In this document: one piece after another, positions 29,241 to 64,000 of the stretch
How positions within the stretch are numbered: position 1 is the first letter of the stretch
How the letters are laid out: every line of letters begins with the position of its first letter
Assembly: GCA_964372855.1 (NCBI GenBank)
Contig: CAYJRY010000001.1
Span: 18,794-82,793 of the forward strand
Source of the DNA: an uncultured Gammaproteobacteria bacterium
GTDB taxonomy: Bacteria; Patescibacteriota; Microgenomatia; Levybacterales; UBA12049
Direction of reading: 5' to 3'
Length of the DNA: 64,000 nucleotides
Program-made: the position numbers and the translations under genes
Notes under the pieces: model-generated
Database searches by the model: none
The model's input: the letters and a program-made list of their open reading frames with translations, nothing else
What the model was told of the DNA's origin: nothing

Positions 29241-29352
29241 TGCACCTTTTAAAACCCCGCAACTTGATGCGTGGGTTAGCATCGTTATTTTTTCGCGTGA
29301 GTCAATCCCGCACCTATTCGGTGCGGGATCAATATTCCACGAAAAAAAGGTG
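29241..29352. repeat. GC-rich palindromic element: a perfect 10-bp stem hairpin (ATCCCGCACC-tattc-GGTGCGGGAT, 29305-29329) nested inside outer inverted repeats (TGCACCTTTT / AAAAGGTGC)
   Basis: This is read directly from the sequence. It is the most GC-rich stretch in an AT-rich window. It overlaps the last 15 codons of the 29285-31018 CDS and lies about 75 nt upstream of the 28101-29165 start. It is a candidate terminator or structured RNA. Confidence 0.4.
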
Positions 29353-31018
29353 CTGGATTTATTTTGTATAAGAAGACGATAAGGATGCCTAAGGAAAATA
29401 AAGTGATATAAGTACTTACCTTCCTTACAAATGTGTCATTGAATTTAATCTCAACTAAATTTAGTCCTTTTTGTATTTTGAAGGTAAAAAGTCCATTTTT
29501 GGTTGCTTGAGCTTTTGTTTCTTTGTTATTCACATATACTACCCAATTAGGAAAATAGGCTGTGTTTACTTGCATCAATGATTGCTCAGCTGCTTCTACT
29601 TCAAACCTATAATAAGTACTCTTGATTGTATGGCTTTTTATTTTGCCCTCTCCTTTTAAAAACTCAATTTTTGAGTTTTGACTTTTAAGTTTGGTATCAA
29701 AAATAACAGTGTTAAAAACATTTCCAGGACTATTGGTTCCGTGAATAAAGTTAGATCGGCTAATGTAATAATTATCATCTCTATAATGATAATAAGCTGG
29801 GTTTGTATATCCTATCCCAAAAAAGAAAGAAGTCAAAATCAATACTATCCCCAACAACTTACTTTTCCAAAAATAAATAACTCCTCCGCTTAAAAACGAA
29901 GAAATAAGTATCTCAAGACTTAAAAATCTCCAAGGAAATTGAAAATAGTTCATAAAAATAACTGACTGCCAGATTGGTGCAGAACTCTTAAGCATCAGAA
30001 ATAAAATAAAGAAAAACCAAGCCAAAAAAAAGATAAGTATGCCCATCTGTTTCATCCCAAGCGACCCCAAGAATATATGCAGCCTCAAGTCAGCGAGATT
30101 GGTTCTCCCGATTTTCACAATGACTAACATTAAACACATAATTACCACTAATAAATTTGCTATCCCTATCTGGAATGACATTTGATTTGAAATATTTTCT
30201 CCAGAAAACCCAGAACCCCAAGAAGGAATAATAAGTTGATAAAAATCTGGAAAATGCCTTGAAACATCAAATATTTCAAGACCTCTTACGTAATCTCTCT
30301 CCAGTATCGCAGGCAACCAAAAAACAGTTGACAAACCAAGACCTAAAAGTATTAAGTATAAAGCATTAAGTATTAGGTATTTTTTATTTTGTTCTTTACT
30401 AATCAGGTATACAACATATGATAGGGCAAAAATGAAAAACATGAGAGCTAATATGTTGTGGGAGAATATAATTAAGGCCAAAAATATAGATGATAATATA
30501 AAAAAAGAATATTTTCTTTCTCTTATAAAATTAGCTATTGACCATAAAAACGCTGGAAAAAGTGCTAATGACCAAGCTTCCCCTACTGAACCTCTAATAT
30601 AAATATCTAAAAAATGATACGGCGAATATGTATAAAATACTGAAGAAACAATTCCTCCATTTACACCCCAAAAGTTTTTTGTCCACAAATAACAAAATAC
30701 TGCTCCTATAATTAATGATAAAAACATTTCTAATTTAAATATATCTATAAAACTTAAATTAAAAAATCTAAAAAAAGTAGCTATATAATTGGGTAATGGA
30801 TAAACATAATTAAAAAGAGGAACTCCAAATCCATTATTCAAATCGGGTGCCCAACGAGGATATAAATTACCATCCAAAAAAGTTTTGTTGAATTGATAAA
30901 ATCTTACTATATGATATTCTCCATCATGAGTCGGAGGCAAACCTTTGTGAAGTAGTGGTAATCCAGAAACGATAGCGAAAATAATAACAATAATTATCGG
31001 GTAAATATTTTTAACCAT
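29285..31018 (-). CDS. Large polytopic membrane protein, YfhO-like GT-C candidate (paralog group Y)
   Basis: 577 aa. It has more than 10 TM helices plus a C-terminal extracytoplasmic domain. Its first loop THDGEYHIVRF...NLYPRWAPDLNNGFGVPLFNYVYPLPNY is shared with 42550-44205 and, more loosely, with 54407-56923. Confidence 0.45.
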   Translation of the reverse strand: MVKNIYPIIIVIIFAIVSGLPLLHKGLPPTHDGEYHIVRFYQFNKTFLDGNLYPRWAPDLNNGFGVPLFNYVYPLPNYIATFFRFFNLSFIDIFKLEMFLSLIIGAVFCYLWTKNFWGVNGGIVSSVFYTYSPYHFLDIYIRGSVGEAWSLALFPAFLWSIANFIRERKYSFFILSSIFLALIIFSHNILALMFFIFALSYVVYLISKEQNKKYLILNALYLILLGLGLSTVFWLPAILERDYVRGLEIFDVSRHFPDFYQLIIPSWGSGFSGENISNQMSFQIGIANLLVVIMCLMLVIVKIGRTNLADLRLHIFLGSLGMKQMGILIFFLAWFFFILFLMLKSSAPIWQSVIFMNYFQFPWRFLSLEILISSFLSGGVIYFWKSKLLGIVLILTSFFFGIGYTNPAYYHYRDDNYYISRSNFIHGTNSPGNVFNTVIFDTKLKSQNSKIEFLKGEGKIKSHTIKSTYYRFEVEAAEQSLMQVNTAYFPNWVVYVNNKETKAQATKNGLFTFKIQKGLNLVEIKFNDTFVRKVSTYITLFSLGILIVFLYKINPAPFFRGILIPHRIGAGLTHAKK

Positions 31019-32130
31019 AACTTTTCTTTGAAAAGATAGAAAAATACTACTCCAAGTGGAAAAATAAATGTTAATATTGTTTTTATAATAGAAGTCTTAT
31101 CGTCATATATCCCCGTTAGCATGAAAGGTATATATCTAAGAAGTAGTCCAAGACTAAGCGATATGGATATAGCTAATAAAAACTTTCTTTGTGGGATAAG
31201 AAATGAAAATGACAAAAACCATATTGCATACCAAGGATATATTTCCTCTCTAAGTGGAGACATTAGAAATCCAAAAAACATTGCTAATGCCGAATAAAAA
31301 TATACTTTTCCCCAATTAATAGATTCATTCTTCAATTTTTTAAAAAATACATAAACAAAAATAGGCAAAAGAACAATAGTTGCATATTTTATAAAAACTG
31401 ACAATAAAAAAAATAAAACTGATAATTTAATTTTATTTTTCATTAGTAAAATGAAAGATAATAGTGCAAAAAAAATCATTACTATGTCATTATGGCCACT
31501 AACTAAAGTTTCTAAGACTACAAGAGGATTAAATGCAAATAGTCCAATGGATACTAATCTATTTGTCATTTTCCAAATAAGAAAAATGGTGCCAATATAA
31601 AATAAGGAAATAAGTAATTTAAAATTGAAAAGAATAAGTATAAAATTACTAAAACCAAACAAAAATGGAATCCCAGACATTAAAATCCAACTTGGTCCGT
31701 ACAACGCGATTTTATTTGCTGCATGAGTAAAAGAAAGTAAAGGATCTCCAACAAATTCAATCGGCATAATAATATATGGATTTTCCTGATAAAAAAATAA
31801 AACCTTTGAGGTAGCTATATAATTAAAAATATCATATGAAAGCATTGCAGGATATGAAAATAATAATATTAAAGCGGTTATTAAGATAATTAATCCGAAT
31901 TTTTTAGAGCTAAAGTAATTGTTCTTAATATATTTAAGAAATAAAAAATAAAATAAAAAACTTAAAAAAACAGTTAAAATGTAAATTATTGTTGTCTCCA
32001 ATCTATGCTTATATGAGAAACCAGAATAAATATTTTGTAGGTAACTAAAATTAGGATCTATAAATAAATAAGAACAAATAGCCACAAAAATTAGAAAAAC
32101 AAAATAAAAAACAATTAAAAATTTTTTCAC
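30994..32130 (-). CDS. Polytopic membrane protein, DUF2029/GT87-like GT-C candidate
   Basis: 378 aa, all-helical membrane protein. It has an SYDIFNYIATSKVLFFYQENPY loop motif. The C-terminal LGLLLRYIPFMLTG is echoed in the remnant at 38346-38564. Confidence 0.35.
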   Translation of the reverse strand: MKKFLIVFYFVFLIFVAICSYLFIDPNFSYLQNIYSGFSYKHRLETTIIYILTVFLSFLFYFLFLKYIKNNYFSSKKFGLIILITALILLFSYPAMLSYDIFNYIATSKVLFFYQENPYIIMPIEFVGDPLLSFTHAANKIALYGPSWILMSGIPFLFGFSNFILILFNFKLLISLFYIGTIFLIWKMTNRLVSIGLFAFNPLVVLETLVSGHNDIVMIFFALLSFILLMKNKIKLSVLFFLLSVFIKYATIVLLPIFVYVFFKKLKNESINWGKVYFYSALAMFFGFLMSPLREEIYPWYAIWFLSFSFLIPQRKFLLAISISLSLGLLLRYIPFMLTGIYDDKTSIIKTILTFIFPLGVVFFYLFKEKLWLKIFTR

Positions 32131-32645
32131 AATACTCTTTTTCTAATATTAATAGCACTATCAATTGATTTAGCTAAATCAAGAAATATGGATGAGCTTT
32201 TCTCGGGTTCCCAATTAAATGTTTTTGGAATTTCTTCTAAACTTCTAAGAACTTCTCTGTGTTTTATCTCCGCTTCTTTAAGAAATAATTTATTATGGGA
32301 AATATCTTTTTTTTGATCGGCCTTTATATAATGTATAGTTTTAAGAAAATAAGAATCTGATTTTTTAAGAGCACTGATTCCAAGCAAATACTGTCTGTAT
32401 TCAAAGAGAGTTTTTGCCTCAACTAAATATTTATCTGAGTACTTCAGATTATATTTAAACTGCCCTAAATCACCAAAATACCAAAACTTGGATATTTTTT
32501 CCCAAATAAGTTTTATTGTATATAACTTACTTCCTGGCATACCTGATGGATACGGAAGCACGTAGTTTGATTCTGCAAGGCTGATGTTACTGAAAAATAT
32601 TAAGAGGAACAATGTGGGCATCAGTACCCAAAAACATCTTATCAT
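32127..32645 (-). CDS. Secreted/signal-peptide protein of unknown function (paralog S1)
   Basis: The likely true start is the internal Met (MIRCFWVLMPTLFLLIFFSNISLA), which makes an ATGA overlap with the upstream stop. The mature region YVLPYPSGMPGSKLY...FGDLGQFKYNL...YLVEAKTLFEYRQYLLG...HREVL is about 55% identical to 38610-39125. Confidence 0.45.
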   Translation of the reverse strand: MIRCFWVLMPTLFLLIFFSNISLAESNYVLPYPSGMPGSKLYTIKLIWEKISKFWYFGDLGQFKYNLKYSDKYLVEAKTLFEYRQYLLGISALKKSDSYFLKTIHYIKADQKKDISHNKLFLKEAEIKHREVLRSLEEIPKTFNWEPEKSSSIFLDLAKSIDSAINIRKRVL

Positions 32646-33640
32646 TTTGAATTTTGAATTTTGAATTTTGAATTTTTTGTGTGCCATTCAAATGCAGTTG
32701 CAACAATAGTTTCAAGATCAGAATATCGAGGTTCAAATCCAATCTCCTTCTGAATCTTTTTTGCGTCAGCTATTAGAGCTTCTGCGTCACCACTTCTCCT
32801 ACTTTTTACTTTAACCTTTAGCGTTTTTCCTGAAACTTTTTCGACCATTTCTATTACTTCTTTATTCGAATAACCTATTCCTGTCCCAATATTATAATAA
32901 AATCCCCCCTTATCTCGATTAATTTTATCAAGAGCCAAAATATGGCCCTCAATAAGATCTATGACATGTATATAATCTCTTATGCAAGACCCATCGTAAG
33001 TATTATAATTAGATCCATATAAATTAAATTCAGTGTCATTTATAGCTGCATCTATTGCCAATGGAATAATATGTGTTTCAGGATTATGCAATTCTCCTAA
33101 TTTACCATCGAAAGAAGCCCCTCCCGCATTAAAATATCTTAGACTTACGAAACTTAGCCCTACATTATTTTGAAAATAACTTAACATTTTCTCAACTTCA
33201 AGCTTGTTTTCTCCATAAGGACTAGTTGGATTTTTCGGGTGATCCTCAGGAATTGGTATTTTAATAGGATTACCGTAAACCGCGGCTGATGATGAAAAAA
33301 TTAGTTTATCTATATTTCCTTTTCCAATCATTGTTTCGACAAGATTTTTTGTTCCTGTTACGTTATTCTCATAATATTTCTGCGGATCTTTTGTTGATTC
33401 TTCAACGGAAATGTAACCAGCAAAATGCATTACAGCATCAATTATTTCATCTTGAAATAAATTCTCAAGAGTTGCTTCATCTTTAATATCGCCACTTACA
33501 AATTTTGCCCTGTCGTCAATAGCTTTTTTATATCCTCTCTCCAAACTGTCAAAAACAACAACCTTATTATCTAGATCAAGAAGTCGCTTAGTCATAAAAC
33601 TTCCAATATATCCTGCTCCTCCTGTAACAAGTATTTTCAT
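32642..33640 (-). CDS. UDP-glucose 4-epimerase-like (GalE-family) extended SDR
   Basis: The true start is probably MKILVTGGAGYIGSF. The ORF-track start at 33715 adds 25 atypical residues. It has SSSAAVYG...YGENK catalytic motifs. The C-terminal tail is encoded by the 7-bp repeat. Confidence 0.7.
   Translation of the reverse strand: MKILVTGGAGYIGSFMTKRLLDLDNKVVVFDSLERGYKKAIDDRAKFVSGDIKDEATLENLFQDEIIDAVMHFAGYISVEESTKDPQKYYENNVTGTKNLVETMIGKGNIDKLIFSSSAAVYGNPIKIPIPEDHPKNPTSPYGENKLEVEKMLSYFQNNVGLSFVSLRYFNAGGASFDGKLGELHNPETHIIPLAIDAAINDTEFNLYGSNYNTYDGSCIRDYIHVIDLIEGHILALDKINRDKGGFYYNIGTGIGYSNKEVIEMVEKVSGKTLKVKVKSRRSGDAEALIADAKKIQKEIGFEPRYSDLETIVATAFEWHTKNSKFKIQNSK
32645..32672. repeat. Perfect heptanucleotide tandem repeat (TTTTGAA)x4, followed by a T6 tract
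   Basis: Read directly: ttttgaa ttttgaa ttttgaa ttttgaa tttttt. It lies in the last codons of the GalE-like gene (encoding ...KNSKFKIQNSK*) and immediately abuts the coupled start of the secreted-protein gene. Confidence 0.8.
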
Positions 33641-33665
33641 ATAAAAAATTCCCACATAATCGTAT

Positions 33666-33965
33666 CTATACCGATCCCGAATCGTTATAACTATGACACA
33701 ATCCAAAATCTTCATATAAAGATGGCATTATAGATAGTGTTAGAAAAAGTGGTTCAAGATATGGATAATATACTATATCAATATTTTTGGGTAATTTTAC
33801 TCCTCGAGTAATAAAAATGTTCTTATTATTTGGAAAATAATTTAATAGAGAGCTTTTTAAGTTTTCTATGTAAAACCCTGTTCCCCTTACCCTTTGCTGG
33901 ATGTCTGTTGTATTATTTATAGGAGAAATATCCATTGCAATATTCATTTCCTTATTATACAACAA
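33666..33965 (-). pseudogene. Remnant of a GT4 glycosyltransferase with an internal deletion
   Basis: The 99-aa ORF joins an N-terminal segment homologous to 28101-29165 (MNIAMDISP...VRGTGFYIENLK...DIVYYPYLEPLFLTL) directly to the C-terminal MPSLYEDFGL motif. About 250 aa of GT4 core are missing. Confidence 0.55.
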
Positions 33966-34113
33966 CTCTTGTATTGTTGCTTTATTCTATAAACAACTGC
34001 CCCCAAAGGAATTTAGATCTAAAATTCAAAACACTTCAGAAAGTAATTTCTGAGCATACAATAAAACCGAAGAGATGGAGATTATTTCTAGAAGACAGGT
34101 TTTAATTAAAGAT

Positions 34114-35244
34114 TCACTTATGCTTTAAGTTAAATGCACTTAGACCAAGAAGAGGAATAAGAAAGGTAAAATACGCGTGAGTTGTCCATTGGCTTAGTAC
34201 TAGATAAATAAACATAATTACTCCTGAGGCTACAAAAACTTTATTAAATGAATCAAATCTAAAATATCGAAATAAAAAAAATACTGTAGCAAGACTACCT
34301 ATGGTTCTAACTCCCCACATTTGCTCTGTTGAAAAAGTAATATGTAACGTGTCTTTTAGAAAAACCCATATATTCCATCCCCATATTGTATGCCAGTTTG
34401 TCAATTCTATAAAAGAAATACTACGAAAAAATCCTTGAGGCGCAAATAAAATAAAAGGTCCTGAAACAATAATAATGGTCAATAAAAAATGAAAAATGTA
34501 GCGCTTGTTTGAAATTGGCAAAAGGTTTTTATTCTGGTAAATGTATGGAATAAAAAATAGCAGGTAAAAAAATACGTGGTGCTTGAAAGATGCTGCAAAC
34601 CCTAAGATTATTGCGCTTAGAATAGCATAAAAACGGCTTTTATTATTAACCGAGTAAATAAATAGTATTATTGATAAAAGTAAAATAAATATTGTACTAT
34701 TATCATTACTTCCATCAGCTGATAAATCGATTAAAAATGGCGTTAAAGACACAACAGCAAACAAAGGTAATATTTTCATAGTTTTTAAAATCCTTCCGTA
34801 GATAAGTATCAAAACTGGCACAAAAGATGAAACAAGCATCTCAAAAAAACGCAAATCAATATTTAAAATATATGCGGGTAAATACCAAAAGAGGCTAAAT
34901 GGCAAATAGGTAAAAGGGGTTAATCCACTTTGTGCCATAATCATTTCCTTATAGACATTTTTTCCATTAACGAAATAACCAATATAATCACGAACTGCCA
35001 TCAGAGCATCGGATCCATATGTGGAGGTATGATATTGAATTATTCTACCTAAAGTGCCAAAAATTAATAGATATAATATGAGAGGGTAAAAAGATTTCTT
35101 AAAATGGAACAGTAGAATAAAAAGCGGCATTAAGGCAAGAGCTACAATAAAAAGCCAGTCAGCGCTATTGTGCACAATTAAAACAAAGCTGACAATAATT
35201 GTTGTCCAAAAAATCCACTCTTTATCGTTTTGATTTCTTCCCAT
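34114..35244 (-). CDS. Polytopic membrane protein, DUF2029/GT87-like GT-C candidate
   Basis: 376 aa, about 10 TM. The GSDALMAVRDYIGYFVNGKNVY loop resembles that of 30994-32130. Confidence 0.35.
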   Translation of the reverse strand: MGRNQNDKEWIFWTTIIVSFVLIVHNSADWLFIVALALMPLFILLFHFKKSFYPLILYLLIFGTLGRIIQYHTSTYGSDALMAVRDYIGYFVNGKNVYKEMIMAQSGLTPFTYLPFSLFWYLPAYILNIDLRFFEMLVSSFVPVLILIYGRILKTMKILPLFAVVSLTPFLIDLSADGSNDNSTIFILLLSIILFIYSVNNKSRFYAILSAIILGFAASFKHHVFFYLLFFIPYIYQNKNLLPISNKRYIFHFLLTIIIVSGPFILFAPQGFFRSISFIELTNWHTIWGWNIWVFLKDTLHITFSTEQMWGVRTIGSLATVFFLFRYFRFDSFNKVFVASGVIMFIYLVLSQWTTHAYFTFLIPLLGLSAFNLKHK

Positions 35245-35512
35245 ATTTTTTGATCAACAGACTATATTATAACATCGTATACTGTAAAACACTATGAAAT
35301 AAAGTGTTGCTTGAGATACAAATTTGGCCTTTGTTGTTATCGAAGTATCTTTAAACTTTACCTCGATTTGATGTTTGTCTGGAGTCTCGTTAAATTAAAT
35401 TATCTTATCAGAATCTGATCCTGCTGTTAATTTTTTTGATCAATAAATACGTTCCATCCAGGAATATAAGCGATATTAACTATTATATTTGATTTCGAAA
35501 AAAACAGAAACT

Positions 35513-36760
35513 TTACATAAGTGCTTGTATTCCAAGTATGTGTAAAAATATTGCCATTGCTATACCTAGAAGGTAAAAAGGGTTGATTTTTCCTTTTATC
35601 CCAAGAATAGAAAGCAATAGAAGTAATACTGTAATATCAAGGGAATACCTGTAACCAAACTGCATCCAACCAGTGCTGTAAATCATAAGAGATGGCAACA
35701 TTACAATAATTGCCGTTAACCAAAGTGAAAAAAGATAAGGATTGACAGTAAATTTTTTCTTAATTTTTGTAATGGGTATTGCTAAATATGCCGTAAGAAA
35801 TGGGAGTGTTAAAATAAAAATAGAATTACCATTTAAGTTGAAATCAAGTGAAAATTTTCCATTAATAAAACGAAGCTGTGGAGATTCAAAAAGCATATAC
35901 CAAAGGTTATTAGGGATATGAAAAATAGATACAGCCCCTTTTGCTTGCCTTATTTCCGCAAGATACGGTGACTCTTGAATGTAAGTATAACCGTATTCAA
36001 AGACGGTTCCAAATCGAAAGTAGTTATAAAGGAAAAAAAGTATGCTAAAAAATCCAAGGGGTAGACCAAAAATAACAATTGCCTTTAAAAATGCATATGC
36101 CTTTTTTTTAACTGATCCTTTCGATACAATAAAATGTTCCCACAGATATAAGAATCCAGGAAGGAGAACGAAAAAAACAATTGTTGGCCTACCAATTAGA
36201 GCAACACTAAAAACAAGCGTGCTGAAGAAATAATCCCATATTGATCTATGCTTTTTAAAAACGATATATGTTCCAAACACGCCCAAAAATGTTGTTACCA
36301 TTTGATCAACATGCCAAGAACTTCCCAGCGTCCCTACATAAAAGTGTGTTGTCCCAAAAGTAAAAAGTATTATGAATAAGAAAATGTTTCTCTGAGTAAG
36401 AAGAGGAAGAAATTCTTTTTTAACTCGCTGTAACAACAGATAGACAATAACTACATTGAGACTTGCAAAAAATATGGTAAGGTATATTGTAGGAACAAAC
36501 CTTTGTTTTATAAGCTGCAAGGGAATTAAAAAAATTGCCGAAAGCACTCCCCACGGGGCATACCACTTATCTTTATACTCAATAAGATCATAGGTATCTA
36601 TAGGATTTTGTATATCAAGACGAAGTTGCAAAATGGATTTTGCCAGTGGATTAAAATGATCATGGGCCCATTTTGGCTTAAATGAATACTGCGTTGAAAC
36701 TGCAAAATAAACAATAAATGTAACAAAAAAAATACCCAAACAATAGAAAAACTTTTTCAT
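35513..36760 (-). CDS. Polytopic membrane protein, uncharacterised GT-C-like/polymerase-like
   Basis: 415 aa. It has more than 10 hydrophobic helices. No catalytic motif was recognised. Confidence 0.3.
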   Translation of the reverse strand: MKKFFYCLGIFFVTFIVYFAVSTQYSFKPKWAHDHFNPLAKSILQLRLDIQNPIDTYDLIEYKDKWYAPWGVLSAIFLIPLQLIKQRFVPTIYLTIFFASLNVVIVYLLLQRVKKEFLPLLTQRNIFLFIILFTFGTTHFYVGTLGSSWHVDQMVTTFLGVFGTYIVFKKHRSIWDYFFSTLVFSVALIGRPTIVFFVLLPGFLYLWEHFIVSKGSVKKKAYAFLKAIVIFGLPLGFFSILFFLYNYFRFGTVFEYGYTYIQESPYLAEIRQAKGAVSIFHIPNNLWYMLFESPQLRFINGKFSLDFNLNGNSIFILTLPFLTAYLAIPITKIKKKFTVNPYLFSLWLTAIIVMLPSLMIYSTGWMQFGYRYSLDITVLLLLLSILGIKGKINPFYLLGIAMAIFLHILGIQALM

Positions 36761-36763
36761 ATC

Positions 36764-38380: not shown

Positions 38381-38564
38381 AGAAATCTGGCGGAGAAAAA
38401 GAAAAAAGCTCTTTTAATTTTTGAACTGGCAAATGATAATTACCAGCTAGTATGTGCGGTATATATTGAAGAAGTAATCCAAATGAAAAAGTAAAACCTA
38501 TCTTTAATAGATATTTTTTTGCGTCACAAGTACAATAAAGCTTAGAAACCATATTGCATGCCAA
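38346..38564 (-). pseudogene. C-terminal remnant of a paralog of the 30994-32130 membrane protein
   Basis: The 72-aa ORF ...KYLLKIGFTFSFGLLLQYIPHILAGNYHLP aligns with the tail of 30994-32130 (RKFLLAISISLSLGLLLRYIPFMLTGIYDDK). It occupies the same position relative to a secreted-protein paralog. Confidence 0.45.
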
Positions 38565-38609
38565 AAATATATTTCTTCTCTTATTGAAGCAAGAAGAAAA
38601 TAGATTTTT

Positions 38610-39125
38610 TCATATATTATCCCTTATTGAAATCGCTTCCTCAATAGACTTATGCAGATAAAGTACTGTTGGCAGATCTTTCTCCGGTTCCCATTTAAAG
38701 GTATTTGGCACTTTTGATCGAATATTATTTAACACTTCCCGATGTTTTTGTACTGCACTTTTAAGTATTTTCTCTTTTTCAGTGATATCTCTTCCTTCAT
38801 TTTTTGACATCAGTAAATGCGGTTGGATATTCCCAAAGTAGAAATCAGATTTTTTTAATGCATTGTATCCTAATAAATATTGTTTGTATTCAAATAGTGT
38901 TTTTGCTTCAACCAAGTAATTGTCTGATTGATCTAGATTGTATTTAAACTGACCAAAATTTCCAAAAAACCAGTATTTTTTGAATTCATCCCATATCATT
39001 TTAACTTCATAGAACCTATTTCCTGGCATGACAGATGGATAAGGCAAAACATAACTTGATTCGGCGTAAACAGATGATGACATGGCTAAAATTAAAAATA
39101 AAAACAATACTAGAATCTTTTTCAT
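38610..39125 (-). CDS. Secreted/signal-peptide protein of unknown function (paralog S2)
   Basis: 171 aa. It has the signal peptide MKKILVLFLFLILAMSSSVYA. The mature region is about 55% identical to 32127-32645. Confidence 0.45.
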   Translation of the reverse strand: MKKILVLFLFLILAMSSSVYAESSYVLPYPSVMPGNRFYEVKMIWDEFKKYWFFGNFGQFKYNLDQSDNYLVEAKTLFEYKQYLLGYNALKKSDFYFGNIQPHLLMSKNEGRDITEKEKILKSAVQKHREVLNNIRSKVPNTFKWEPEKDLPTVLYLHKSIEEAISIRDNI

Positions 39126-45714: not shown

Positions 45715-45717
45715 AAT

Positions 45718-47229: not shown

Positions 47230-47232
47230 ACC

Positions 47233-48510: not shown

Positions 48511-48511
48511 A

Positions 48512-50164: not shown

Positions 50165-50181
50165 ATGAAGTTTAAACTTGT

Positions 50182-51768: not shown

Positions 51769-51829
51769 TCGAAAAAATGTAGCTAAAAAAACTATTACTG
51801 CTAAAATTAAAATAATATGTTTGTTAAGT

Positions 51830-52507: not shown

Positions 52508-52565
52508 ATTTTATTTTCCAAATACCCTGTTGTAAAAATTACGCTACCTATCGAAAATGATTGGC

Positions 52566-52844: not shown

Positions 52845-52891
52845 AAGCAGAAAAAAGCTTCTAATATAATATCATAAGTAACTACATGAGG

Positions 52892-54385: not shown

Positions 54386-54406
54386 TTTGCAAAGAGAATA
54401 TTTATC

Positions 54407-56923
54407 ATGATACCATATTTCAAAATATATTCTGAGTTAGTTAGAATGAAAAAGTTGTTTAAATCTTTAGATTTTATAGTAATTATTTTCATCTCAATTG
54501 GACTCCTTTATATCTATAGCGATGTTTTACTAAACGGCAAGATTATTTTCCCGTCAAACTTTCTTGCACAATTTTATTCTCCCTGGAGAACAGAAAAATT
54601 CCCAAGCTGGGAAGCAGGAATTCCTCATAAGCCAATCGGGGACGACCAGATTAGACTATTTTATCCCGAACGCACATTTACCAACCTGTTGTTATCTAAA
54701 AATATTCTTCCGCTTTGGAATCCGCATACCTTTTCAGGAACACCATTTCTGGCCGACCTTCAATCTGCAATTTTTTATCCTCCAAATATTCTTTACTTCT
54801 TCTTGCCGCAATTGACAGCATGGCAAATTCTTCTACTCATCCAACCTATCATGGCAACAGCTTTTATGTATATATTTTTAAAAATTTTGGATCTTAAAAA
54901 ACCCGCTGCTTGGCTTGGAGCTATAGCTTTTGGATTCTGTGGTTTTATTTTGGCGTGGAGCCAGGAACATGTAACATCCGGACAAGCTATCTTGTGGCTA
55001 CCGCTAGTAATGTTCGGAATTGAGGGCTATCTTAGACATAGAAAATTAAAATACTACCTAATAGCTATTATTGCGCTGGCGTGTTCTATAGTTGGCGGTT
55101 TTATTCAACAGACTTTTTACGTTTATCTTTTTTCTTTTATATATGTCCTATATAGAATAAATACTTTGCGCCTTAATTTAAGCTACTTATTGAAAGTTAT
55201 GTTTATTTATATTTTCTCTGTATCTCTAACTGCAATACAATTATTTCCATCAATAGAAGCTTTTTTAGAATCCCCCAGAAGCACGTCATCAGCTTGGTAT
55301 TTATTCGAAGGATATCTTCTACCTGTTACTCATATACTCAATGCGTTAGTGCCGGATATTTTTGGAAATCCGGGGACATATAATTTTTTTGGGAGGGGTT
55401 TTTATAGAGAAACTATACTATATATTGGAGTTATTCCTCTATTCCTCGCTACTTATGCTATTTTTAAATCTAAAAAAAATACCATAATTATGTTTTTTAT
55501 TTTTGGCGCAATTTTATCCTTTTTCCTCACAATAGATTCACCTTTCACAAGATGGTTTTTCCGGCTCCCCATCCAATTTCTGAGACCGTTTTTGCCAAGC
55601 CGGATACTTACAATCACCGCTTTTTCTCTTAGCGTACTTTCCGCTTTTGGTTTATCCAAATTAATTAAAGAAAGGAAGAATGACAAGAAAATTCCGTTAT
55701 CTATTATTTTAATATTTTATTTTGCCTTTTTTCTAATAGGAATTTACGCAATTTTATTATTAAAGTTTGGCGATGAATCTTTTTTCAGAGGATTAAATGA
55801 TTACATAATTAGACATAGTTTTTCGCCTACTAGAGACAATGTATTTGTTCTTTTGAAAAATTTAATACTGCCGTTTGCATTTTTTTCCATCTTCGTTCTT
55901 CTTCTAATCTTCAAAAATAAGACTAAATTATTTTTATACGGAGTTGTTTTTCTAACACTATTGAGTCAATTTTATTTTTTGAAAAAATATTCTGTTATTG
56001 GCGAGGCTGAATTTCTTTATCCGAAAAATCCGGTTACTTCTTTTCTCCAATCGAGAAGTTCTTTTGATAGATTTCTGACCTTTCGTGAGTCATTTGAAGA
56101 AAACATATCAACATACTTTGGCATATATTCAGCAGAAGGAGCAAACCCTGTTTTTCCAAGAAGATATGGAGAACTACTTTTTGCTATAAAAAACAATGGG
56201 AAACTGATTAAAGATATCCCTCGTATCGAAGCAAGACTTTCGGAGCTAGGAGATAAAGAAAATCCATTCGAAGATAATAGAAGGCTTCGTTTATTTTCAC
56301 TTCTTGGGATAAAATATATACTCTATTTTGATGATCAAAATCCAAAAAATAGTGGTGCAAATAAATTCTCTGGAAATCTTTTTAAACCTATTTGGCGTCA
56401 TGGTAATTGGTATGGGCTTGAGTATCTTAACAGTTTCCCTAGAGCTTTTTTAGCAAGTAGTATCCATATTGAAAATAATCCTCAAAAAATTTTAGATTTA
56501 ATTTTTGATCCAAAAATAGACCTTTCAACAAGTGTCATTTTGGAAGATAAGCCTCTTGGCATAAAGAGTTCTGGCAAACTTATTAACTTAGAAAAACTTT
56601 CAAAAAATTCATTAGTAAATATTAAATCTTATCAACCTCAAGAAATAATTATCGAGACAAAAACCGATACTCCCCGGATGCTTTTTATTTCGGATAATTT
56701 CTATCCGGGATGGCAAGCTTTTGTTAATGGTAAAGAAACTAAAATTTATCGTACAAACTATACTTTTAGAAGCATTTACCTTTCAGCGGGAAACCACACA
56801 ATAATATTTAAATATAACCCGCAATCATTTAGAATTGGCTCTACAATCTCAATATTTACTGGTTTCATATTAATACTAATTATTTTAATGAACGTTCGCT
56901 CTTCAGCAGCAAGAAAGAGATAG
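54407..56923 (+). CDS. Very large YfhO-like polytopic membrane protein (GT-C candidate); the only plus-strand gene in the 3-prime 35 kb
   Basis: 838 aa (the start is probably the internal MKKLFKSL). It has IGDDQIRLFYPER...LPLWNPHTFSGTPFLADLQSAIFYPPNILYF and about 14 TM helices across the protein. A C-terminal extracytoplasmic domain ends in a TM anchor. Its size and topology match the YfhO family. Confidence 0.45.
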   Translation: MIPYFKIYSELVRMKKLFKSLDFIVIIFISIGLLYIYSDVLLNGKIIFPSNFLAQFYSPWRTEKFPSWEAGIPHKPIGDDQIRLFYPERTFTNLLLSKNILPLWNPHTFSGTPFLADLQSAIFYPPNILYFFLPQLTAWQILLLIQPIMATAFMYIFLKILDLKKPAAWLGAIAFGFCGFILAWSQEHVTSGQAILWLPLVMFGIEGYLRHRKLKYYLIAIIALACSIVGGFIQQTFYVYLFSFIYVLYRINTLRLNLSYLLKVMFIYIFSVSLTAIQLFPSIEAFLESPRSTSSAWYLFEGYLLPVTHILNALVPDIFGNPGTYNFFGRGFYRETILYIGVIPLFLATYAIFKSKKNTIIMFFIFGAILSFFLTIDSPFTRWFFRLPIQFLRPFLPSRILTITAFSLSVLSAFGLSKLIKERKNDKKIPLSIILIFYFAFFLIGIYAILLLKFGDESFFRGLNDYIIRHSFSPTRDNVFVLLKNLILPFAFFSIFVLLLIFKNKTKLFLYGVVFLTLLSQFYFLKKYSVIGEAEFLYPKNPVTSFLQSRSSFDRFLTFRESFEENISTYFGIYSAEGANPVFPRRYGELLFAIKNNGKLIKDIPRIEARLSELGDKENPFEDNRRLRLFSLLGIKYILYFDDQNPKNSGANKFSGNLFKPIWRHGNWYGLEYLNSFPRAFLASSIHIENNPQKILDLIFDPKIDLSTSVILEDKPLGIKSSGKLINLEKLSKNSLVNIKSYQPQEIIIETKTDTPRMLFISDNFYPGWQAFVNGKETKIYRTNYTFRSIYLSAGNHTIIFKYNPQSFRIGSTISIFTGFILILIILMNVRSSAARKR

Positions 56924-56937
56924 GGAGTTTGAGATAA

Positions 56938-59079: not shown

Positions 59080-61054
59080 TAATCTTATAAATCACTGTAG
59101 ATTGGTCCTCGTATACCTTATGTATATAAGCTTTCTTTGCAACAAAAGCTAACGGGTAAGGACTATAAATATATGATATTTTATTTTTTTCAAATCCCTG
59201 CCTTACCTCTTCTTGGAGATGGGTATACTCGGAAGAATCGTTTGGAGGTATGTTATCTAAGAAAATCACTTTATGAATAAAGTCAATTCTAGGCCTAATA
59301 TCCACTCCAAAAAAATCAATATATTCGTTACTAAGATAACTTCTTTTGTTGCCAAAAGCAACAATTGCGGGTGAGGATGAACCATACCAATGCCCTACAT
59401 CTTTTAACGTTGGCTTAATATCTTTGGATGGAATTTCTATAACAGTATCTCTATATTTTCCCTGCGATTTCAAAAAATTCATTGCTTGAAAATAAGGTCC
59501 TGATAATGAAAAACTATTTGAATTCCTAGTGCCAAAGTAAACCTTATAGCTCTCATATGCAGATGGCAATGTTAGAACGACAATTACTGTAAATAGCAAA
59601 GTTTTTATCAGCCGACTTGAGATAAGATTCAAGAATGCAGAAACTCCAAATGCGGCAAATAAAGAAATAAAAAATAAAAAATACCATCCCATTTGTATTA
59701 TTTCAAATACTTTCCCTGACTGGATAAAAAATAAGGGAATCAAAATAGAAATTAGAGTTATTAGCAAAACTGTAAAAGCAAAAAATGAAGGTGGTTTGCG
59801 TTGTTTCAAAAAAATCACTGGCAAGAAAAATAATCCTATCAATCTTGTACCCAAATTTCCAAACAAAAATACGTACAGTGCGTATAATTCTGTCTCTACT
59901 ATTCCCTTTATCACAGTAAACTTTGTATAAGTATACATTTTCTCTGCGTATCCATACCAAGGCATATTATCTGTTAAAACGCTATGAGGTGCCCAAAGAG
60001 GCGCGAAAATAAGAATAGATGTTGGATCTCTAAAAATACCGTATGTAAAAATAAAAATTAATCCTGTAATAAATAAAGGAATAAGTATAAAATAGTTTTT
60101 TTTGCGAACTATCTCAATTAAACTAAATAAGATAAAACCTCCAATAAGAATAATTCCTGCATATACTTTGAACATGGTAGACATACCAACGAACAAAGCG
60201 GCAATAATTAGCCAATTATTTTTTCTCGATTCAAGATATTGATAGGTCGCAAAAAGTGTTGAAATTACAATAATGATTGAAATGGCAAAAGGAGGATTAA
60301 TTAATGATGTTGCTGGCTGCTGTATTCCAAAAGCGCTATCCAGACTTAAATTAGTATGACCTCTTAAATAAAGGATGAAAGCGAAACTGCCGCCAAACAT
60401 AGTTAAAAAAACAGCCCAGAGAGCAACTGATGTTTTTTTACTCCATGCAAAACTTAAACAATAAACTCCCAGTCCCCACAAAATAGCCATAAATAACGGA
60501 AAGAAATGGAAATGTAACGAAAGAGGAGAAATAAAAATAATGTTACTAAACATTGCTATTAAAAAATTATAAAAAAAATGATAGCCCTTTAAAGGCACTT
60601 GTGCAAATCCTGGATTATCAGGCGGAAAATTTTCTTTTAATTCATTTATCAAAGCCAAATGCCACAAATCATCTCTTCCATATCTAATGGTATCTCCATA
60701 AACGCCAGACATTAACATGCTAAGGCTAAAAATAAATGATAAAACAAATATAATAAAAAAAGGCTTTATATGGAATTTATCAAGATTACAAGGCAACCAT
60801 TTCTTGCTTTTAATGACAAGAAAGTCAAGTATTAGTAGTATTGGCAAAATTATTATCTCCAATTTCAACCAAGTAAATATATAAGAAATTAGTGTAAATA
60901 GCATTATTCCTAAAGCAAATGGGAAAAAAAGATCCTCTGGCGAATCAAGTGTAAGTTTCAGTCTTGCTAATAAAAATTTTCCAGGCAAATAAAAACAAAT
61001 AAAAATAGCAAAAAGAAAAAGCACAATTTCTAGGAAAGATTGTAGAATATTCAT
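59069..61054 (-). CDS. Large polytopic membrane protein, possibly a YfhO-like GT-C candidate
   Basis: 661 aa. It has GDTIRYGRDDLWHLALINEL...FPPDNPGFAQVPLKGYHFFY and a C-terminal soluble domain. Confidence 0.3.
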   Translation of the reverse strand: MNILQSFLEIVLFLFAIFICFYLPGKFLLARLKLTLDSPEDLFFPFALGIMLFTLISYIFTWLKLEIIILPILLILDFLVIKSKKWLPCNLDKFHIKPFFIIFVLSFIFSLSMLMSGVYGDTIRYGRDDLWHLALINELKENFPPDNPGFAQVPLKGYHFFYNFLIAMFSNIIFISPLSLHFHFFPLFMAILWGLGVYCLSFAWSKKTSVALWAVFLTMFGGSFAFILYLRGHTNLSLDSAFGIQQPATSLINPPFAISIIIVISTLFATYQYLESRKNNWLIIAALFVGMSTMFKVYAGIILIGGFILFSLIEIVRKKNYFILIPLFITGLIFIFTYGIFRDPTSILIFAPLWAPHSVLTDNMPWYGYAEKMYTYTKFTVIKGIVETELYALYVFLFGNLGTRLIGLFFLPVIFLKQRKPPSFFAFTVLLITLISILIPLFFIQSGKVFEIIQMGWYFLFFISLFAAFGVSAFLNLISSRLIKTLLFTVIVVLTLPSAYESYKVYFGTRNSNSFSLSGPYFQAMNFLKSQGKYRDTVIEIPSKDIKPTLKDVGHWYGSSSPAIVAFGNKRSYLSNEYIDFFGVDIRPRIDFIHKVIFLDNIPPNDSSEYTHLQEEVRQGFEKNKISYIYSPYPLAFVAKKAYIHKVYEDQSTVIYKINAK

Positions 61055-62613
61055 TCTAAATTATGTTTATTTTCTCTAAATATTCGCTTTTGCACTAAAA
61101 ATTGACCAAACTTTTTTTCTTCTAAAATATCTGATGTTTTATTTTCTTCAAATATAATTTGCTGTATAAAATAATCCGGGATTCCAGTTGTTGGCTCAAT
61201 AATAACGTACCTATATTTCGTGCCAAAGGGTTTATCTAAAAGATTTCCTAAGTAACCTACTTGACTTTTTCCGCCATGATAAGGAAGATACCCATATTTT
61301 TTTTCGCCATACAGTTCATAAAGATACGACCATAAAGTATTTATATGCAAAGGGTTGGTTATCGGTATTATTGTAAACTGCTTGCCTCTGGATTCTTTAT
61401 AGGTATAATTAACAATTTCTTTTTCAAGACTTAGACTTATACCATATTGTACTGACAATGGACTATATTCTGTTTTGAGCCATGAATACACAGTATAAAA
61501 TTGCCCCGAAAAAATACAGATCAAAATAAAAGCAAGAAGTTTAAAATTTTTGACTGTATTTATTAATAAATATGCCCCTATTGCTATAATAGGAATAATA
61601 AAAGGTCCAAACATAAATCCACTATGCAGTATTCCTGATTTAAATAGATAAAAAATAACAAGTACTCCTAACCATATAGACAAAAGTATCAACGCGTATA
61701 TATCTTGCTTTTTTTTATATCGCTTTAAATAAAATATAACTAAAAATATGAAGAAAACTAATGCCCAATAAAAGGGTATAAAAGTTATTGATAAAAGAAA
61801 ATTAAACTTTTCAATAATTAAAAAAATCGTTTCCGTAAAAGGCCTTGAGGAAGACAGACTAGAGTTTAGAAAATCTGCAATTGCCAAAATAGCTTTGCCT
61901 TTAAATCGAATTTCGGAAATTACATATGTACTTGTCCCCAACAAAAAACCTAGTCCCAAAAGTAAAAAGCTTTGAAGTGTAAGTTTTATTTTATAAATTA
62001 ACCAGTATATAGGTAATACAATCAAAAACAAACCAAATGCGAAATCTGCTTGTATCAGAAACCCAAAAAAAAGACCTGTCAATATTAAATCTTTTTTTTG
62101 CTGTTGTTTTATGAACCTCCATAAAAAAAACAATAAAAGAGGCGTTATGTAAAGTGCAATAAGAGGATTTGCTAGCCACCTAGTAAATGTTTGAAAGAGC
62201 GGAGACGATGCATATAAAACAGAGGCCAAAAGGGCTATATGAAAATTTCGGAAAAGTTTGTATATAAAATAAATGCATAGAGGTATTGTAAGTAATGAAA
62301 AAAGAAAGAAGAAAACAGCAACAAATTCAGGGTTTCCAGAACTTATTGCATAAGGTAATGAAAGCAAATAATACCACAAAACACCATGATGCACTCCTGG
62401 AAGATCTGAGGACGGGCCAAGTATCTTAAAATCTTGATTATGCCAAATCGCGTATGCTTCGTAGGCATCTCTTGCTTGATCAAATCCGAAAACAAGCTGT
62501 TTTGATAGCCCAAAAAACGCAAATATAATAGAGATAATGAACGTAAAGACATACAATAAAAGTAGATAAAGAGGAATTTCTTTGAAATACTTTATTAATC
62601 TATGAATCGACAT
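61051..62613 (-). CDS. GT-C-like polytopic membrane protein, D-x-x-R-D family with a C-terminal LYGEKKYGY domain
   Basis: 520 aa. It has FGFDQARDAYEAYAIWHNQDFKILGP...GVHHGVLWYY and LYGEKKYGYLPYHGGKSQVGYL...RYVIIEPTTG. Confidence 0.45.
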   Translation of the reverse strand: MSIHRLIKYFKEIPLYLLLLYVFTFIISIIFAFFGLSKQLVFGFDQARDAYEAYAIWHNQDFKILGPSSDLPGVHHGVLWYYLLSLPYAISSGNPEFVAVFFFLFSLLTIPLCIYFIYKLFRNFHIALLASVLYASSPLFQTFTRWLANPLIALYITPLLLFFLWRFIKQQQKKDLILTGLFFGFLIQADFAFGLFLIVLPIYWLIYKIKLTLQSFLLLGLGFLLGTSTYVISEIRFKGKAILAIADFLNSSLSSSRPFTETIFLIIEKFNFLLSITFIPFYWALVFFIFLVIFYLKRYKKKQDIYALILLSIWLGVLVIFYLFKSGILHSGFMFGPFIIPIIAIGAYLLINTVKNFKLLAFILICIFSGQFYTVYSWLKTEYSPLSVQYGISLSLEKEIVNYTYKESRGKQFTIIPITNPLHINTLWSYLYELYGEKKYGYLPYHGGKSQVGYLGNLLDKPFGTKYRYVIIEPTTGIPDYFIQQIIFEENKTSDILEEKKFGQFLVQKRIFRENKHNLE

Positions 62614-63311: not shown

Positions 63312-63331
63312 TAAGTGAATTAATAAGATTT

Positions 63332-64000
63332 CTAGTTTTTTAATTTTTTAAAAATATATTGTTCTTGAGTCTTAAATATAATTTGGTAATTTTTATCTCT
63401 TTTTAATTTTTCAATTATATCAAAAATATCAGATGGGCTCGTAAAAAAATTGTTTGGATTCTGTCCACTACGAACATCTATTAATATGTAGTCAGGATTA
63501 TAATCATTATAATTATTCCTAAGTAGCCAAACTTTCTGATGAGTGAAATGGGAAGCTAAATTATTTTGCGTCATTACCGAACTATCACGCGGGATCTGTT
63601 TAATTACATTATCTAAAAAAGTAAAATTACCTGTATGGCTATAAAATGCCTTATTATAGGCTAACCCAAAAGGACCATGTAATACAAATTGAAACAAATA
63701 AAGAGAGTTTAGAATTAAGAACAATCCAAAAAGATTTAAATATTTTTTTAGAATATAAATTCTATTTTTTAAAAAATGAAAACTGTAAATACTTGCTATA
63801 GCCATAATCACAGCTAACTGCGCATTGTAATGTAGACCAAGTCCCCATCTGGTTGGGGTCATAGGTATAAAACGAATAAATAAATCTTGAAAAATTAATG
63901 CCCAAAAAGACGGCGATATAAGTGGTAAAAAACCAAAACTGTAAAAACTATAAAAAAGAGTGTTTCTTTTTATAGAATCGTCGAGAAATGCAGTAACGTA
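63332..64000 (-). CDS. Partial CDS (N-terminus beyond the window): another polytopic membrane protein with a C-terminal soluble domain
   Basis: The frame is open from 63862 to the window edge with no stop (…YSFYSFGFLPLISPSFWALIFQDLF…) and is hydrophobic. The listed ATG at 63862 is probably internal. Confidence 0.35.
   Translation of the reverse strand, partial: YVTAFLDDSIKRNTLFYSFYSFGFLPLISPSFWALIFQDLFIRFIPMTPTRWGLGLHYNAQLAVIMAIASIYSFHFLKNRIYILKKYLNLFGLFLILNSLYLFQFVLHGPFGLAYNKAFYSHTGNFTFLDNVIKQIPRDSSVMTQNNLASHFTHQKVWLLRNNYNDYNPDYILIDVRSGQNPNNFFTSPSDIFDIIEKLKRDKNYQIIFKTQEQYIFKKLKN

Follow-up and report, generated by a model that had tools for sequence, protein, structure and literature searches.

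The stretch analysed here (the window, 64,000 nucleotides long) comes from the Levybacterales assembly GCA_964372855.1 (contig CAYJRY010000001.1, forward-strand positions 18,794 to 82,793), and from 29285 to its end it carries an array of genes for polytopic membrane proteins of the glycosyltransferase superfamily C (GT-C) type. The G+C content of the window is about 30%, and from 5185 onward almost every gene lies on the minus strand. The array region contains 25 open reading frames (ORFs) of at least 150 aa in the ORF listing, and 19 of them encode polytopic membrane proteins. All 18 complete ones show 6–14 hydropathy peaks, taken as transmembrane (TM) helices; these counts come from a crude hydropathy script, and the extracytoplasmic side of the first loop (loop 1) comes from the positive-inside rule only. 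Genes are named after their first position in the window, and their coordinates are given in Table 1.

Most members begin with a short basic N-terminus, after which come the first TM helix and a loop 1 of 50–85 residues with a conserved acidic motif, and a C-terminal tail of 125–165 residues frequently follows the last TM helices. Adjacent genes commonly overlap by 4–25 nt, which would fit operon-like co-translation. A first-pass annotation of this DNA had described at least 19 such proteins with acidic first loops in a single co-directional block. The number stands, as does the motif, an Asp being conserved in the family alignments of most members, but the block is not strictly co-directional: 54407 is the sole plus-strand gene between 29285 and 64000.

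Table 1. Genes and gene remnants in and around the array, in window order
Position	Strand	Assignment	Basis
180-24087		N-formyltransferase, DegT aminotransferase, split transketolase pair	domains
180-24087		GmhA-like (heptose-type) SIS isomerase, GHMP kinase, nucleotidyltransferase-HAD (phosphatase) fusion	domains
180-24087		C-methyltransferase, TylF O-methyltransferase, five dehydratase (4,6-)/epimerase enzymes, several GT4 and GT2	domains
24090..24896	-	GT2, DPM1/GtrB-like candidate	Pfam Glycos_transf_2; overlaps Wzx gene 24880 by 17 nt
24880..26142	-	Wzx-type (Polysacc_synt) flippase 1	Pfam Polysacc_synt_3, Polysacc_synt; syntenic in 19 loci
26776..28101	-	Wzx-type flippase 2	Pfam Polysacc_synt_3, Polysacc_synt; syntenic in 19 loci
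28101..29165	-	GT4, cytoplasmic	Pfam Glycos_transf_1, Glyco_transf_4; conserved downstream array edge
29285..31018	-	GT-C, PTPS_related/YfhO-like, 577 aa	PF10131 39.7 bits
30994..32130	-	GT-C, MptA/GT87-like, 378 aa, 10 TM	TIGR03459 E 1.9e-5
32127..32687	-	DUF5667 signal-anchored small protein	Pfam sub-threshold; 54% identical to 38610
32642..33715	-	NAD-dependent sugar epimerase (GalE-like)	Pfam Epimerase 185 bits; conserved locus member
33716..34113	-	Remnant, GT4 N-terminal 71 aa, 28101-like	tblastn 61% identity, E 1e-27
34114..35244	-	Polytopic, 376 aa, 7–9 TM, weak GT-C	PMT_2 E 0.02; Agl23 E 0.0023
35245..35512	-	Remnant, C-terminus of 42550-type YfhO-like gene	tblastn, two pieces, E 4e-7
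35513..36760	-	GT-C-like, LA_3751/LA_3752-related, 415 aa, 9 TM	hhalign, homologue annotation
36764..38380	-	GT-C, short paralogue of 59069, 538 aa	hhalign
38381..38609	-	Remnant, C-terminus of 30994-type MptA-like gene, frameshifted	tblastn, two pieces, E 2.5e-12
38610..39125	-	DUF5667 small protein, second copy	Pfam, BLASTP
39147..40310	-	GT-C, short PMT-like, 387 aa	homologue of 56938 TM domain; loop-1 PDE
40317..41804	-	GT-C, PMT_2 (D..RD group)	Pfam PMT_2 32.4 bits
41801..42568	-	GT2 with hydrophobic C-terminal tail	Pfam GT2 72.5 bits
42550..44205	-	GT-C, PTPS_related/YfhO-like, 551 aa	PF10131
44206..45714	-	GT-C, PMT_2-like D..RD	no Pfam match for this copy
45718..47229	-	GT-C, PMT_2 (D..RD group)	Pfam PMT_2 47.2 bits
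47233..48609	-	GT-C, PMT_2 (D..RD group)	Pfam PMT_2 29.2 bits
48512..50164	-	GT-C, PMT/PMT_2 (ArnT/Pmt-like)	Pfam PMT_2 55.5, PMT 36.6 bits
50182..51768	-	GT-C, PMT/PMT_2, tandem paralogue of 48512	Pfam; BLASTP E 2e-106, 41% identity
51830..52507	-	SAM-dependent methyltransferase	Pfam Methyltransf_11 87.9 bits
52508..52891	-	Remnant, PMT/ArnT-like N-terminal ~60–100 aa	tblastn to 48512 E 1e-9; six-frame reading
52892..54385	-	GT-C, divergent D..RD	BLASTP to 44206 E 5e-12, 61051 E 1e-9
54407..56923	+	GT-C, YfhO, 838 aa	Pfam YfhO 77.1 bits
56938..59079	-	PMT-like GT-C with PBP2a-type N-terminal region, 713 aa	PBP_dimer 51.6 bits
59069..61054	-	GT-C, unannotated family, 661 aa, 14 TM and 150-aa C-terminal globular domain	AF2 model, Foldseek
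61051..62613	-	GT-C, PMT_2 (D..RD group)	Pfam PMT_2 32.1 bits
62595..63311	-	GT2, DPM1/GtrB/ArnC-like, 238 aa, no TM	Pfam GT2 121 bits
63332..64000	-	DUF2079 polytopic protein, cut by window end	Pfam DUF2079 52.9 bits

GT-C families of the array

Searches of the kind proposed with the first-pass annotation linked 17 of the 19 membrane proteins to the GT-C superfamily, through Pfam matches, profile-profile alignments, the annotation of homologues or the predicted fold. The Pfam gathering score is exceeded by 11 of the 19. Eight (44206, 52892, 30994, 39147, 35513, 36764, 59069 and 34114) have no Pfam match, and all of these except 59069 and 34114 are joined to GT-C by BLASTP, hhalign or homologue annotation. 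Polytopic topology, an acidic residue in loop 1, family matches and the GT-C fold were all found; the loop-1 motifs are conserved across the 44206, 48512/50182, 29285/42550, 56938 and 59069 families but less clear in 34114, and in hhalign the loop-1 Asp of both the 44206 and the 35513 family falls on the D-E of PMT. AlphaFold2 (AF2) models were made for 59069 and 56938, two of the 19, and both show helical TM bundles. Nineteen polytopic GT-C-type genes within 35 kbp is far above chance expectation.

All-vs-all BLASTP recovered the paralogue classes previously recognised by eye, except for the placing of 36764 and 59069 with YfhO. Six proteins (40317, 44206, 45718, 47233, 52892 and 61051) form the group with a near-invariant D..RD in loop 1, the earlier D-x-x-R-D loop family. 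D37, R40 and D41 are conserved in the alignments of the 44206 family, which has 404 homologue clusters, some with PF13231, and the 44206 orthologue profile aligns with the 48512/50182 PMT profile at 95.2% in hhalign. The listed ORF 47233 overlaps 48512 by 98 nt; since the public gene call in the corresponding locus (L001) starts internally and gives 438 aa, translation probably leaves out some 20 residues at the N-terminal end of the ORF.

The tandem paralogues 48512 and 50182 form the second group and, as the earlier ArnT-like assignment had it, match both PMT (PF02366, 36.6 and 44.1 bits) and PMT_2, with an invariant W34-D35-E36 in loop 1. Neither MIR nor PMT_4TMC was matched by any array protein in Pfam, and the pair is therefore filed as PMT_2/ArnT-Pmt-like GT-C and not as GT39 PMT. 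The listed TTG start of 50182 is preceded, at 51769-51829, by an in-frame stretch that encodes the first TM helix (KHIILILAVIVFLATFFRL). Between this stretch and the stop of the methyltransferase gene there is no ATG, GTG or TTG; a non-canonical start such as ATT or ATA would be used, or else the start codon would have been lost recently. A 124-nt tract spanning the 'ISNIK..KIQIKYLIF' segment is 77% identical between the two genes (48891-49014 and 50561-50684) and may be a gene-conversion patch.

The YfhO-like group consists of 29285, 42550 and 54407. Protein 29285, with 9–10 TM helices and the loop-1 motif THDGEYH, is 31% identical to 42550, and T-H-D-G is conserved in the alignment of their family; its YfhO match is limited to the C-terminal 75 residues (29.6 bits against a cut-off of 28.5). 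BLASTP joins 42550 to 54407 at E 6e-6 over 366 aa, and the YfhO match of 54407 consists of two stretches, the better one C-terminal. The 54407 orthologue is likewise inverted in three related loci (L002, L003 and L006).

The remaining BLASTP groups are 36764 with 59069, and 39147 with the N-terminus of 56938. The latter two had been called PMT-like, and their TM domains are indeed homologous (E 6e-15; 39147 against 48512, E 7e-4), but 56938 also bears domains of the PBP2a type, that is, of a penicillin-binding protein (PBP). Residues 1 to ~405 of 56938 form a PMT-like GT-C domain of 10 TM helices with G-D-D in loop 1, and residues ~386-709 an NTF2-like MecA_N domain plus the PBP dimerisation/pedestal domain (PF03717), corresponding to PBP2a residues 4-326 in NCBIfam. 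Homologues carry PF02366 or PF13231 together with PF05223 and PF03717; they fall into at least 218 clusters, and the 120 listed are nearly all 660–710 aa long with the PBP domain. The AF2 model (pLDDT 90.2) matches PBP2a, PBP5 and PBP3 in Foldseek at E~1e-15 over ~310 columns, in a list so dominated by PBP2a entries that the TM domain is not rankable.

In their NTF2-like and pedestal/allosteric domains, PBP2a by profile and fold, and PBP5 and PBP3 by fold, resemble residues ~386-709, but they have a transpeptidase and a single TM anchor where 56938 has the 10-TM GT-C domain. No transpeptidase domain was found in 56938 or its 120 listed homologues; the protein stops right after the pedestal match and, having no such C-terminal domain, is not a PBP. 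Bona fide PBPs contact the SEDS polymerase through this NTF2-like/pedestal region, with which PBP2a also binds fragments of peptidoglycan. Among the 56938 matches are PDB entries whose titles name muramic acid and a peptidoglycan analogue as occupants of the allosteric site. By analogy, the GT-C domain of 56938 is probably docked on peptidoglycan or its synthesis machinery. No description of this architecture was found.

The pair 59069/36764, earlier read as divergent YfhO, gives no YfhO signal and is a separate family, whose two branches align over the full length (hhalign 98.6%, E 5.5e-16). Neither protein has a Pfam, NCBIfam or PDB sequence match, and the 120 homologue clusters listed for 59069 are all unnamed or 'hypothetical', without a Pfam domain. 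Profiles of the 59069, 36764, 39147 and 35513 families matched nothing among all PDB chains, and hhalign against the PMT family was weak for the 59069 (27%) and 39147 (36%) families; 39147 was placed through the Pfam annotation of 56938 homologues, and 59069 through its model. That model (pLDDT 84.9, pTM 0.88) finds GT-C enzymes only in the top ranks of two independent fold searches. In Foldseek, ranks 1-7 belong to PglB and STT3 (E 2e-6 to 9e-6), and DPY19 and AftA come next; AftB, AftD and Emb, Mpt and PimE structures are also among the fold matches, and transporters appear at E>0.09 only. The conserved loop-1 Asp is D128.

In predicted fold, therefore, 36764 and 59069 are GT-C proteins nearest to the oligosaccharyltransferases (OSTs) PglB, STT3 and AglB. 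The overall fold with a C-terminal globular domain is that of these GT66 enzymes, but the Pfam STT3 sequence match is absent (none even at E<=10), and a search for the WWDYG-type motif gave only an unconvincing 'HWYGSSSP' in 59069, lost in the 36764 subfamily. For these two reasons the proteins are not filed as OSTs.

Four array proteins stand outside the BLASTP groups. The GT87 match of 30994 is sub-threshold, and its syntenic orthologue in a related locus (L002) has PF26314 (MptA_B_family). Protein 35513 has 1265 representatives at E<=1e-3 in a library of 1.8 billion proteins. Half of the homologues sampled (15/30) match NCBIfam NF047440, the 'LA_3751/LA_3752 family putative glycosyltransferase' of Leptospira, itself uncharacterised, and 35513 matches it only at E 0.093. 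Pfam assigned no family to the 30 homologues, its only matches being TPR repeats in a single fused protein and a weak DUF2079 signal; hhalign links the 35513 family to the PMT family (93.7%, E 1.9e-7). Many homologues are 550–650 aa long, with ~170–250 extra N-terminal residues that had no Pfam or NCBIfam match in the members sampled. A fusion to TPR repeats is also seen in TMTC-type GT-C enzymes. Together with the widespread GT-C–PBP fusion, the OST-like and 35513 families make three protein families of the locus without a Pfam model or a functional name.

The other two are less secure. Protein 34114 had been classed as DUF2029-like (GT87), an assignment not borne out by its sub-threshold PMT_2 and Agl23 signals; hhalign to the PMT family gives 34%, and weak phmmer matches (to E 5.8e-5) lead to ORFs of ~550 aa in related loci. 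Gene 63332, left unclassified earlier, is not short but a truncated full-length gene, because its frame remains open over 63863-64000 to the window end; a full-length 475-aa orthologue (L007:906-2333) scores 141 bits for DUF2079 and shows no relationship to the 35513 family. By its Pfam clan DUF2079 may be GT-C-related, but the comparisons made here gave no link to GT-C.

Conserved order and partial decay of the locus

Homologues of 44206, 59069 and 56938 occur in Patescibacteria, mainly Levybacteria; identical proteins are encoded on an 85.6-kbp NCBI contig and on a Logan contig. A scan of GTDB species representatives with the 44206 orthologue alignment gave 72 loci, in Levybacteria, Curtissbacteria, a few Gottesmanbacteria and other Patescibacteria. 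Full loci of ~21 kbp from Levybacteria, Curtissbacteria and other Patescibacteria nearly all contain 5–13 GT-C-like ORFs, mostly at least 7; the Gottesmanbacteria loci contain one. The comparison with related genomes that had been proposed earlier thus shows that the array recurs, and with a shared core order: GT2 (62595-type), PMT copies, 50182, 48512, 44206 (45718 and 47233 optional), 42550, GT2 (41801), then (40317), epimerase, DUF5667, MptA-like, 29285, GT4, Wzx and GT2 (24090). This order is held by about 12 core genes throughout Levybacteria, even where protein identity has fallen to ~45%.

The conserved unit reaches beyond 29285 to include the GT4 gene 28101, the Wzx genes 26776 and 24880 and the GT2 gene 24090; orthologues of 28101 come immediately behind the 29285-type gene in 27 loci, and those of 24090 occupy the matching array end in 44 loci. 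Orthologues of the epimerase 32642 were found as 52 ORFs across related loci. In relatives one copy of the DUF5667 gene always lies between the epimerase and the MptA-like GT-C gene, and its product could be a candidate acceptor, chaperone or glycan ruler. The window has three copies of this signal-anchored protein gene (8052-8651, 32127-32687 and 38610-39125), all on the minus strand.

Compared with the four closest relatives, the GT-C orthologues are 60–77% identical and the cytoplasmic epimerase 62–70%. Since the two ranges are comparable, the core is under purifying selection. Identity between paralogues of the window is no more than 20–41%, so the duplications are ancient. The earlier suggestion of a highly combinatorial machinery is not upheld by this conservation of order and of orthologue sequence, which fits fixed, non-redundant roles. 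The density of GT-C genes had also been called extraordinary; it is so relative to model bacteria, but it is a trait of the lineage and not a peculiarity of one genome.

Accessory gene content varies among related loci, and none of the 72 has an orthologue of 34114 or 35513. Four stretches between genes are remnants, among them the one suspected near 52566, which tblastn to 48512 shows to be real. The other three, together with the DUF5667 gene 38610, constitute a decayed duplicate of the DUF5667–MptA-like–YfhO-like–GT4 module, inside which 36764, 35513 and 34114 now lie. As read from these gene orders and remnants, the array is a conserved core with a smaller accessory part that evolves by segmental duplication and gene replacement.

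Candidate donor synthases, flippases and nucleotide-sugar genes

The GT2 genes interspersed in the array had been proposed as DPM1-like sources of lipid-linked sugars; of the three GT2 genes in and beside it, two are DPM1-like. The best solved relative of 62595 is the dolichyl-phosphate-mannose (Dol-P-Man) synthase of Pyrococcus furiosus (5mlz, E 4e-20, residues 1-216), followed by ArnC and GtrB at ~1e-14, and its orthologues account for 80 ORFs of related loci. The same structure is the best match of 24090 (E 2e-15, residues 8-213), followed by GtrB. Both matches span the whole catalytic domain, and both proteins are candidate polyprenol-phosphate-sugar synthases. The third, 41801, is nearest to GmaR and SunS. 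It overlaps the flanking GT-C genes by 4 and 19 nt (41801/40317 and 42550/41801), and 62595 likewise overlaps 61051. A locus of Levybacteria RIFCSPHIGHO2_01_FULL_36_15b (L017:14777-17089) encodes a 770-aa fusion of a 41801-type GT2 with a 10-TM PMT_2 GT-C, which supports functional coupling of the two.

Both Wzx-type genes of the window match the same single ORF in 19 related loci, so that Wzx has apparently been duplicated in this genome; the two copies flank a dTDP-sugar 3,5-epimerase-like gene (26176), and 24880 is translationally coupled to 24090 by their overlap. No GtrA-type flippase was found in the window, where the sole small-ORF candidate (8644-9027) belongs to no known family and has a single TM helix. 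As noted earlier, a phosphoglycosyltransferase, Wzy and Wzz are likewise absent by Pfam from its 54 large ORFs. Of a Wzx/Wzy-dependent pathway the window thus holds only the Wzx-type flippases and GT4/GT2 enzymes. Of a GtrA/B/C-like system it holds a GT-A synthase, recognised by homology, and GT-C genes near it.

We infer from the DPM1-like GT2 and Wzx genes in one conserved locus that the donor would be a polyprenol-(di)phosphate-linked sugar. The proposal of polyprenol-phosphate-monosaccharide chemistry in place of a classical Wzy pathway is supported by the DPM1-like GT2s, but Wzx, GT4 and the OST-like pair also allow a branch in which a lipid-diphosphate-oligosaccharide is transferred en bloc.

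Window positions 180-24087 are taken up by nucleotide-sugar tailoring genes (Table 1), the domains of which predict methylated and formylated amino, deoxy and heptose sugars. A tRNA scan found none.

Proposed assembly of the glycan and relation to known systems

Gram-positive bacteria have three-component systems (CsbB/GtcA/YfhO, GtlA/GtlB, CsdAB-EF and GacI/J/K/L; PMC8035078; PMC5836110). In these, a GT-A enzyme makes a C55-P-sugar, a GtrA or Wzx protein flips it, and a PMT_2/YfhO GT-C enzyme transfers the sugar to a wall polymer; in streptococci the flippase, GacK, is of Wzx type, and GacI is a GT-A without TM helices (PMC8035078). The locus described here is alike in its GT-A/GT2, putative flippase and PMT_2/YfhO GT-C components, with a soluble GT-A and Wzx-type genes as there. 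It differs in having 19 GT-C proteins of at least seven families in one block, 2–3 synthases and no GtrA, and in its host, a bacterium belonging to the candidate phyla radiation (CPR).

In mycobacteria, many GT-C enzymes act serially outside the membrane on one or two lipid-phosphate-sugar donors in building arabinogalactan, lipomannan and lipoarabinomannan. This mycobacterial and corynebacterial set (EmbA/B/C, AftA-D, MptA-C, PimE and Ppm1), with its serial GT-C enzymes and few donors, is a parallel to what we propose, and the array shares with it the MptA-like member 30994 and, by fold, the AftA, AftB and AftD matches of 59069. There is, however, no orthology beyond the weak MptA similarity, and the array is dominated by PMT_2 and YfhO types. 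Mycobacterial GT-C genes are also mostly dispersed, whereas here they form one contiguous operon-like block. With ArnC/ArnT and Pmt (GT83/GT39), 48512 and 50182 share PMT and PMT_2 matches and the loop-1 D-E, and 62595 resembles ArnC and Dol-P-Man synthase; the MIR domain of the Pmt type was undetected in the array proteins. Lipid A is not known from CPR bacteria.

On balance we consider it probable that the array is the membrane half of a large, conserved envelope-glycan locus of Levybacteria, working in the manner of a fixed assembly line that builds one or a few complex polymers step by step. Enzymes encoded in the first 24 kbp of the window would, to judge from their domains, make unusual nucleotide sugars in the cytoplasm. 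The soluble 62595 and 24090 (by homology), and possibly 41801, would load single sugars on polyprenol phosphate, and the Wzx-type proteins 24880 and 26776 would flip the lipid-linked sugars to the outer leaflet. There, the nineteen GT-C enzymes, with their acidic loop 1 and at least seven sequence families, would draw on few donors, each making its own linkage or serving its own acceptor. The OST-like 59069 and 36764 may transfer a pre-assembled lipid-diphosphate-glycan en bloc, and the initiating enzyme may be encoded elsewhere in the genome. The gene content, families, folds, synteny and conservation are observed, and the donors, flipping, acceptors and order of action are deduced from them. 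A more specific version is rather doubtful: that a complex, lineage-specific wall heteropolysaccharide would be built almost wholly outside by a fixed line of ~20 GT-C enzymes, a functional counterpart of mycobacterial arabinogalactan/LAM synthesis with an independent origin. This line would be coupled physically to peptidoglycan synthesis through 56938 and its captured PBP2a pedestal/allosteric domain, with a new OST-like branch (59069/36764) transferring Wzx-flipped lipid-diphosphate-glycan en bloc to protein or wall.

We favour the assembly line because many GT-C genes stand beside 2–3 synthases, the paralogy is ancient, the order is conserved and the orthologues are strongly conserved. Several points weigh against it. 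The nearest solved relatives of 41801, GmaR and SunS, are protein/peptide glycosyltransferases, not lipid-phosphate synthases; both pathway branches are incomplete here, with no GtrA and no initiating phosphoglycosyltransferase in the window; 34114 has sub-threshold signals only and the DUF2079 protein 63332 no link to GT-C; and fold models cover two of the 19 proteins, the topology of the set coming from the simple hydropathy script. Sequence alone cannot separate an assembly line from many independent decorations. This possible but less likely explanation supposes separate transmembrane glycosylation systems, each GT-C decorating its own acceptor (S-layer or pilus proteins, teichoic-acid-like polymers or peptidoglycan, as with CsbB/GtcA/YfhO, Csd and Gac) to give a modular, combinatorial surface. 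The component types are those of the Gram-positive systems (PMC8035078), GT2 genes adjoin particular GT-C genes (41801 by 40317 and 42550, 62595 by 61051), one locus has the GT2–GT-C fusion, and the varied C-terminal domains (PBP pedestal, OST-like, 125–165-aa tails) suggest varied acceptors. Yet 2–3 synthase candidates would have to serve 19 GT-C enzymes, order and orthologues are conserved like the housekeeping epimerase, against free modular variation, and known bacteria of this type have 1–4 GT-C genes, scattered (PMC8035078).

The four remnants and the inserted genes make the locus partly fluid and lend some support to diversification. We nevertheless consider it improbable that the array is a fast-evolving island of surface variation for evading phages or hosts, with paralogues often gained, lost and exchanged. 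Aquatic bacteria often have hypervariable surface-glycan genes (10.1101/2022.03.23.485478), and 36764, 35513 and 34114 inserted in the decayed module, the 77%-identical tract of 48512/50182, the differing accessory content and the two genes without orthologues would all suit such an island; a ~12-gene core keeping its order, orthologues as similar as those of the epimerase and paralogues that diverged long ago would not. Least credible of all is that most of the proteins are not glycosyltransferases but transporters, polymerases/ligases or structural proteins, with Pfam matches that are artefacts of AT-rich hydrophobic sequence. Several scores are barely above threshold (29–47 bits), eight proteins have no Pfam match and the sequence profiles match nothing in the PDB. 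On the other side, profile-profile links put the catalytic loop-1 Asp in register, the 59069 model finds GT-C enzymes at the top by two fold methods and transporters only at E>0.09, homologues of the weak members have stronger PMT and PMT_2 matches, and the acidic motifs of loop 1 do not vary within family alignments. A transporter or other non-glycosyltransferase identity was rejected on these grounds.

The chemistry of the proposed assembly line is of a known kind, each component belonging to or resembling a known superfamily. What is new is the scale and conserved order of the array in a reduced genome, the OST-like GT-C family, the 35513 family and the GT-C–PBP fusion, which could tie glycan attachment to peptidoglycan synthesis. 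In the literature searched, with its limited coverage, we found no description of GT-C, PMT_2, ArnT or YfhO arrays in CPR, Patescibacteria, Microgenomates or Levybacteria. A large fraction of bacterial diversity belongs to the CPR (Patescibacteria), whose members combine genomes of ~1 Mbp with a life attached to other cells, and whose surface chemistry is hardly known. The array would amount to ~3–4% of the genome, as inferred from relatives' contigs of 0.6–1.0 Mbp, and the upkeep of so sizeable a share under purifying selection implies a central role for the glycan product in the lineage's biology. The first reading is tempered as well: rather than a singular combinatorial curiosity, the array is a conserved pathway, and the locus offers a testable parts list of donor synthases, flippases and 19 transferases.

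The Levybacteria-type array also turns up, with identity to 69%, in many public metagenome-assembled genomes from TPA binchicken/SRP co-assemblies whose records bear the title 'uncultured Gammaproteobacteria bacterium'. They include L003, L009, L010, L013, L020, L023, L028, L031 and L032; gene order was checked in L003 and is syntenic. The Gammaproteobacteria label of these records looks wrong.

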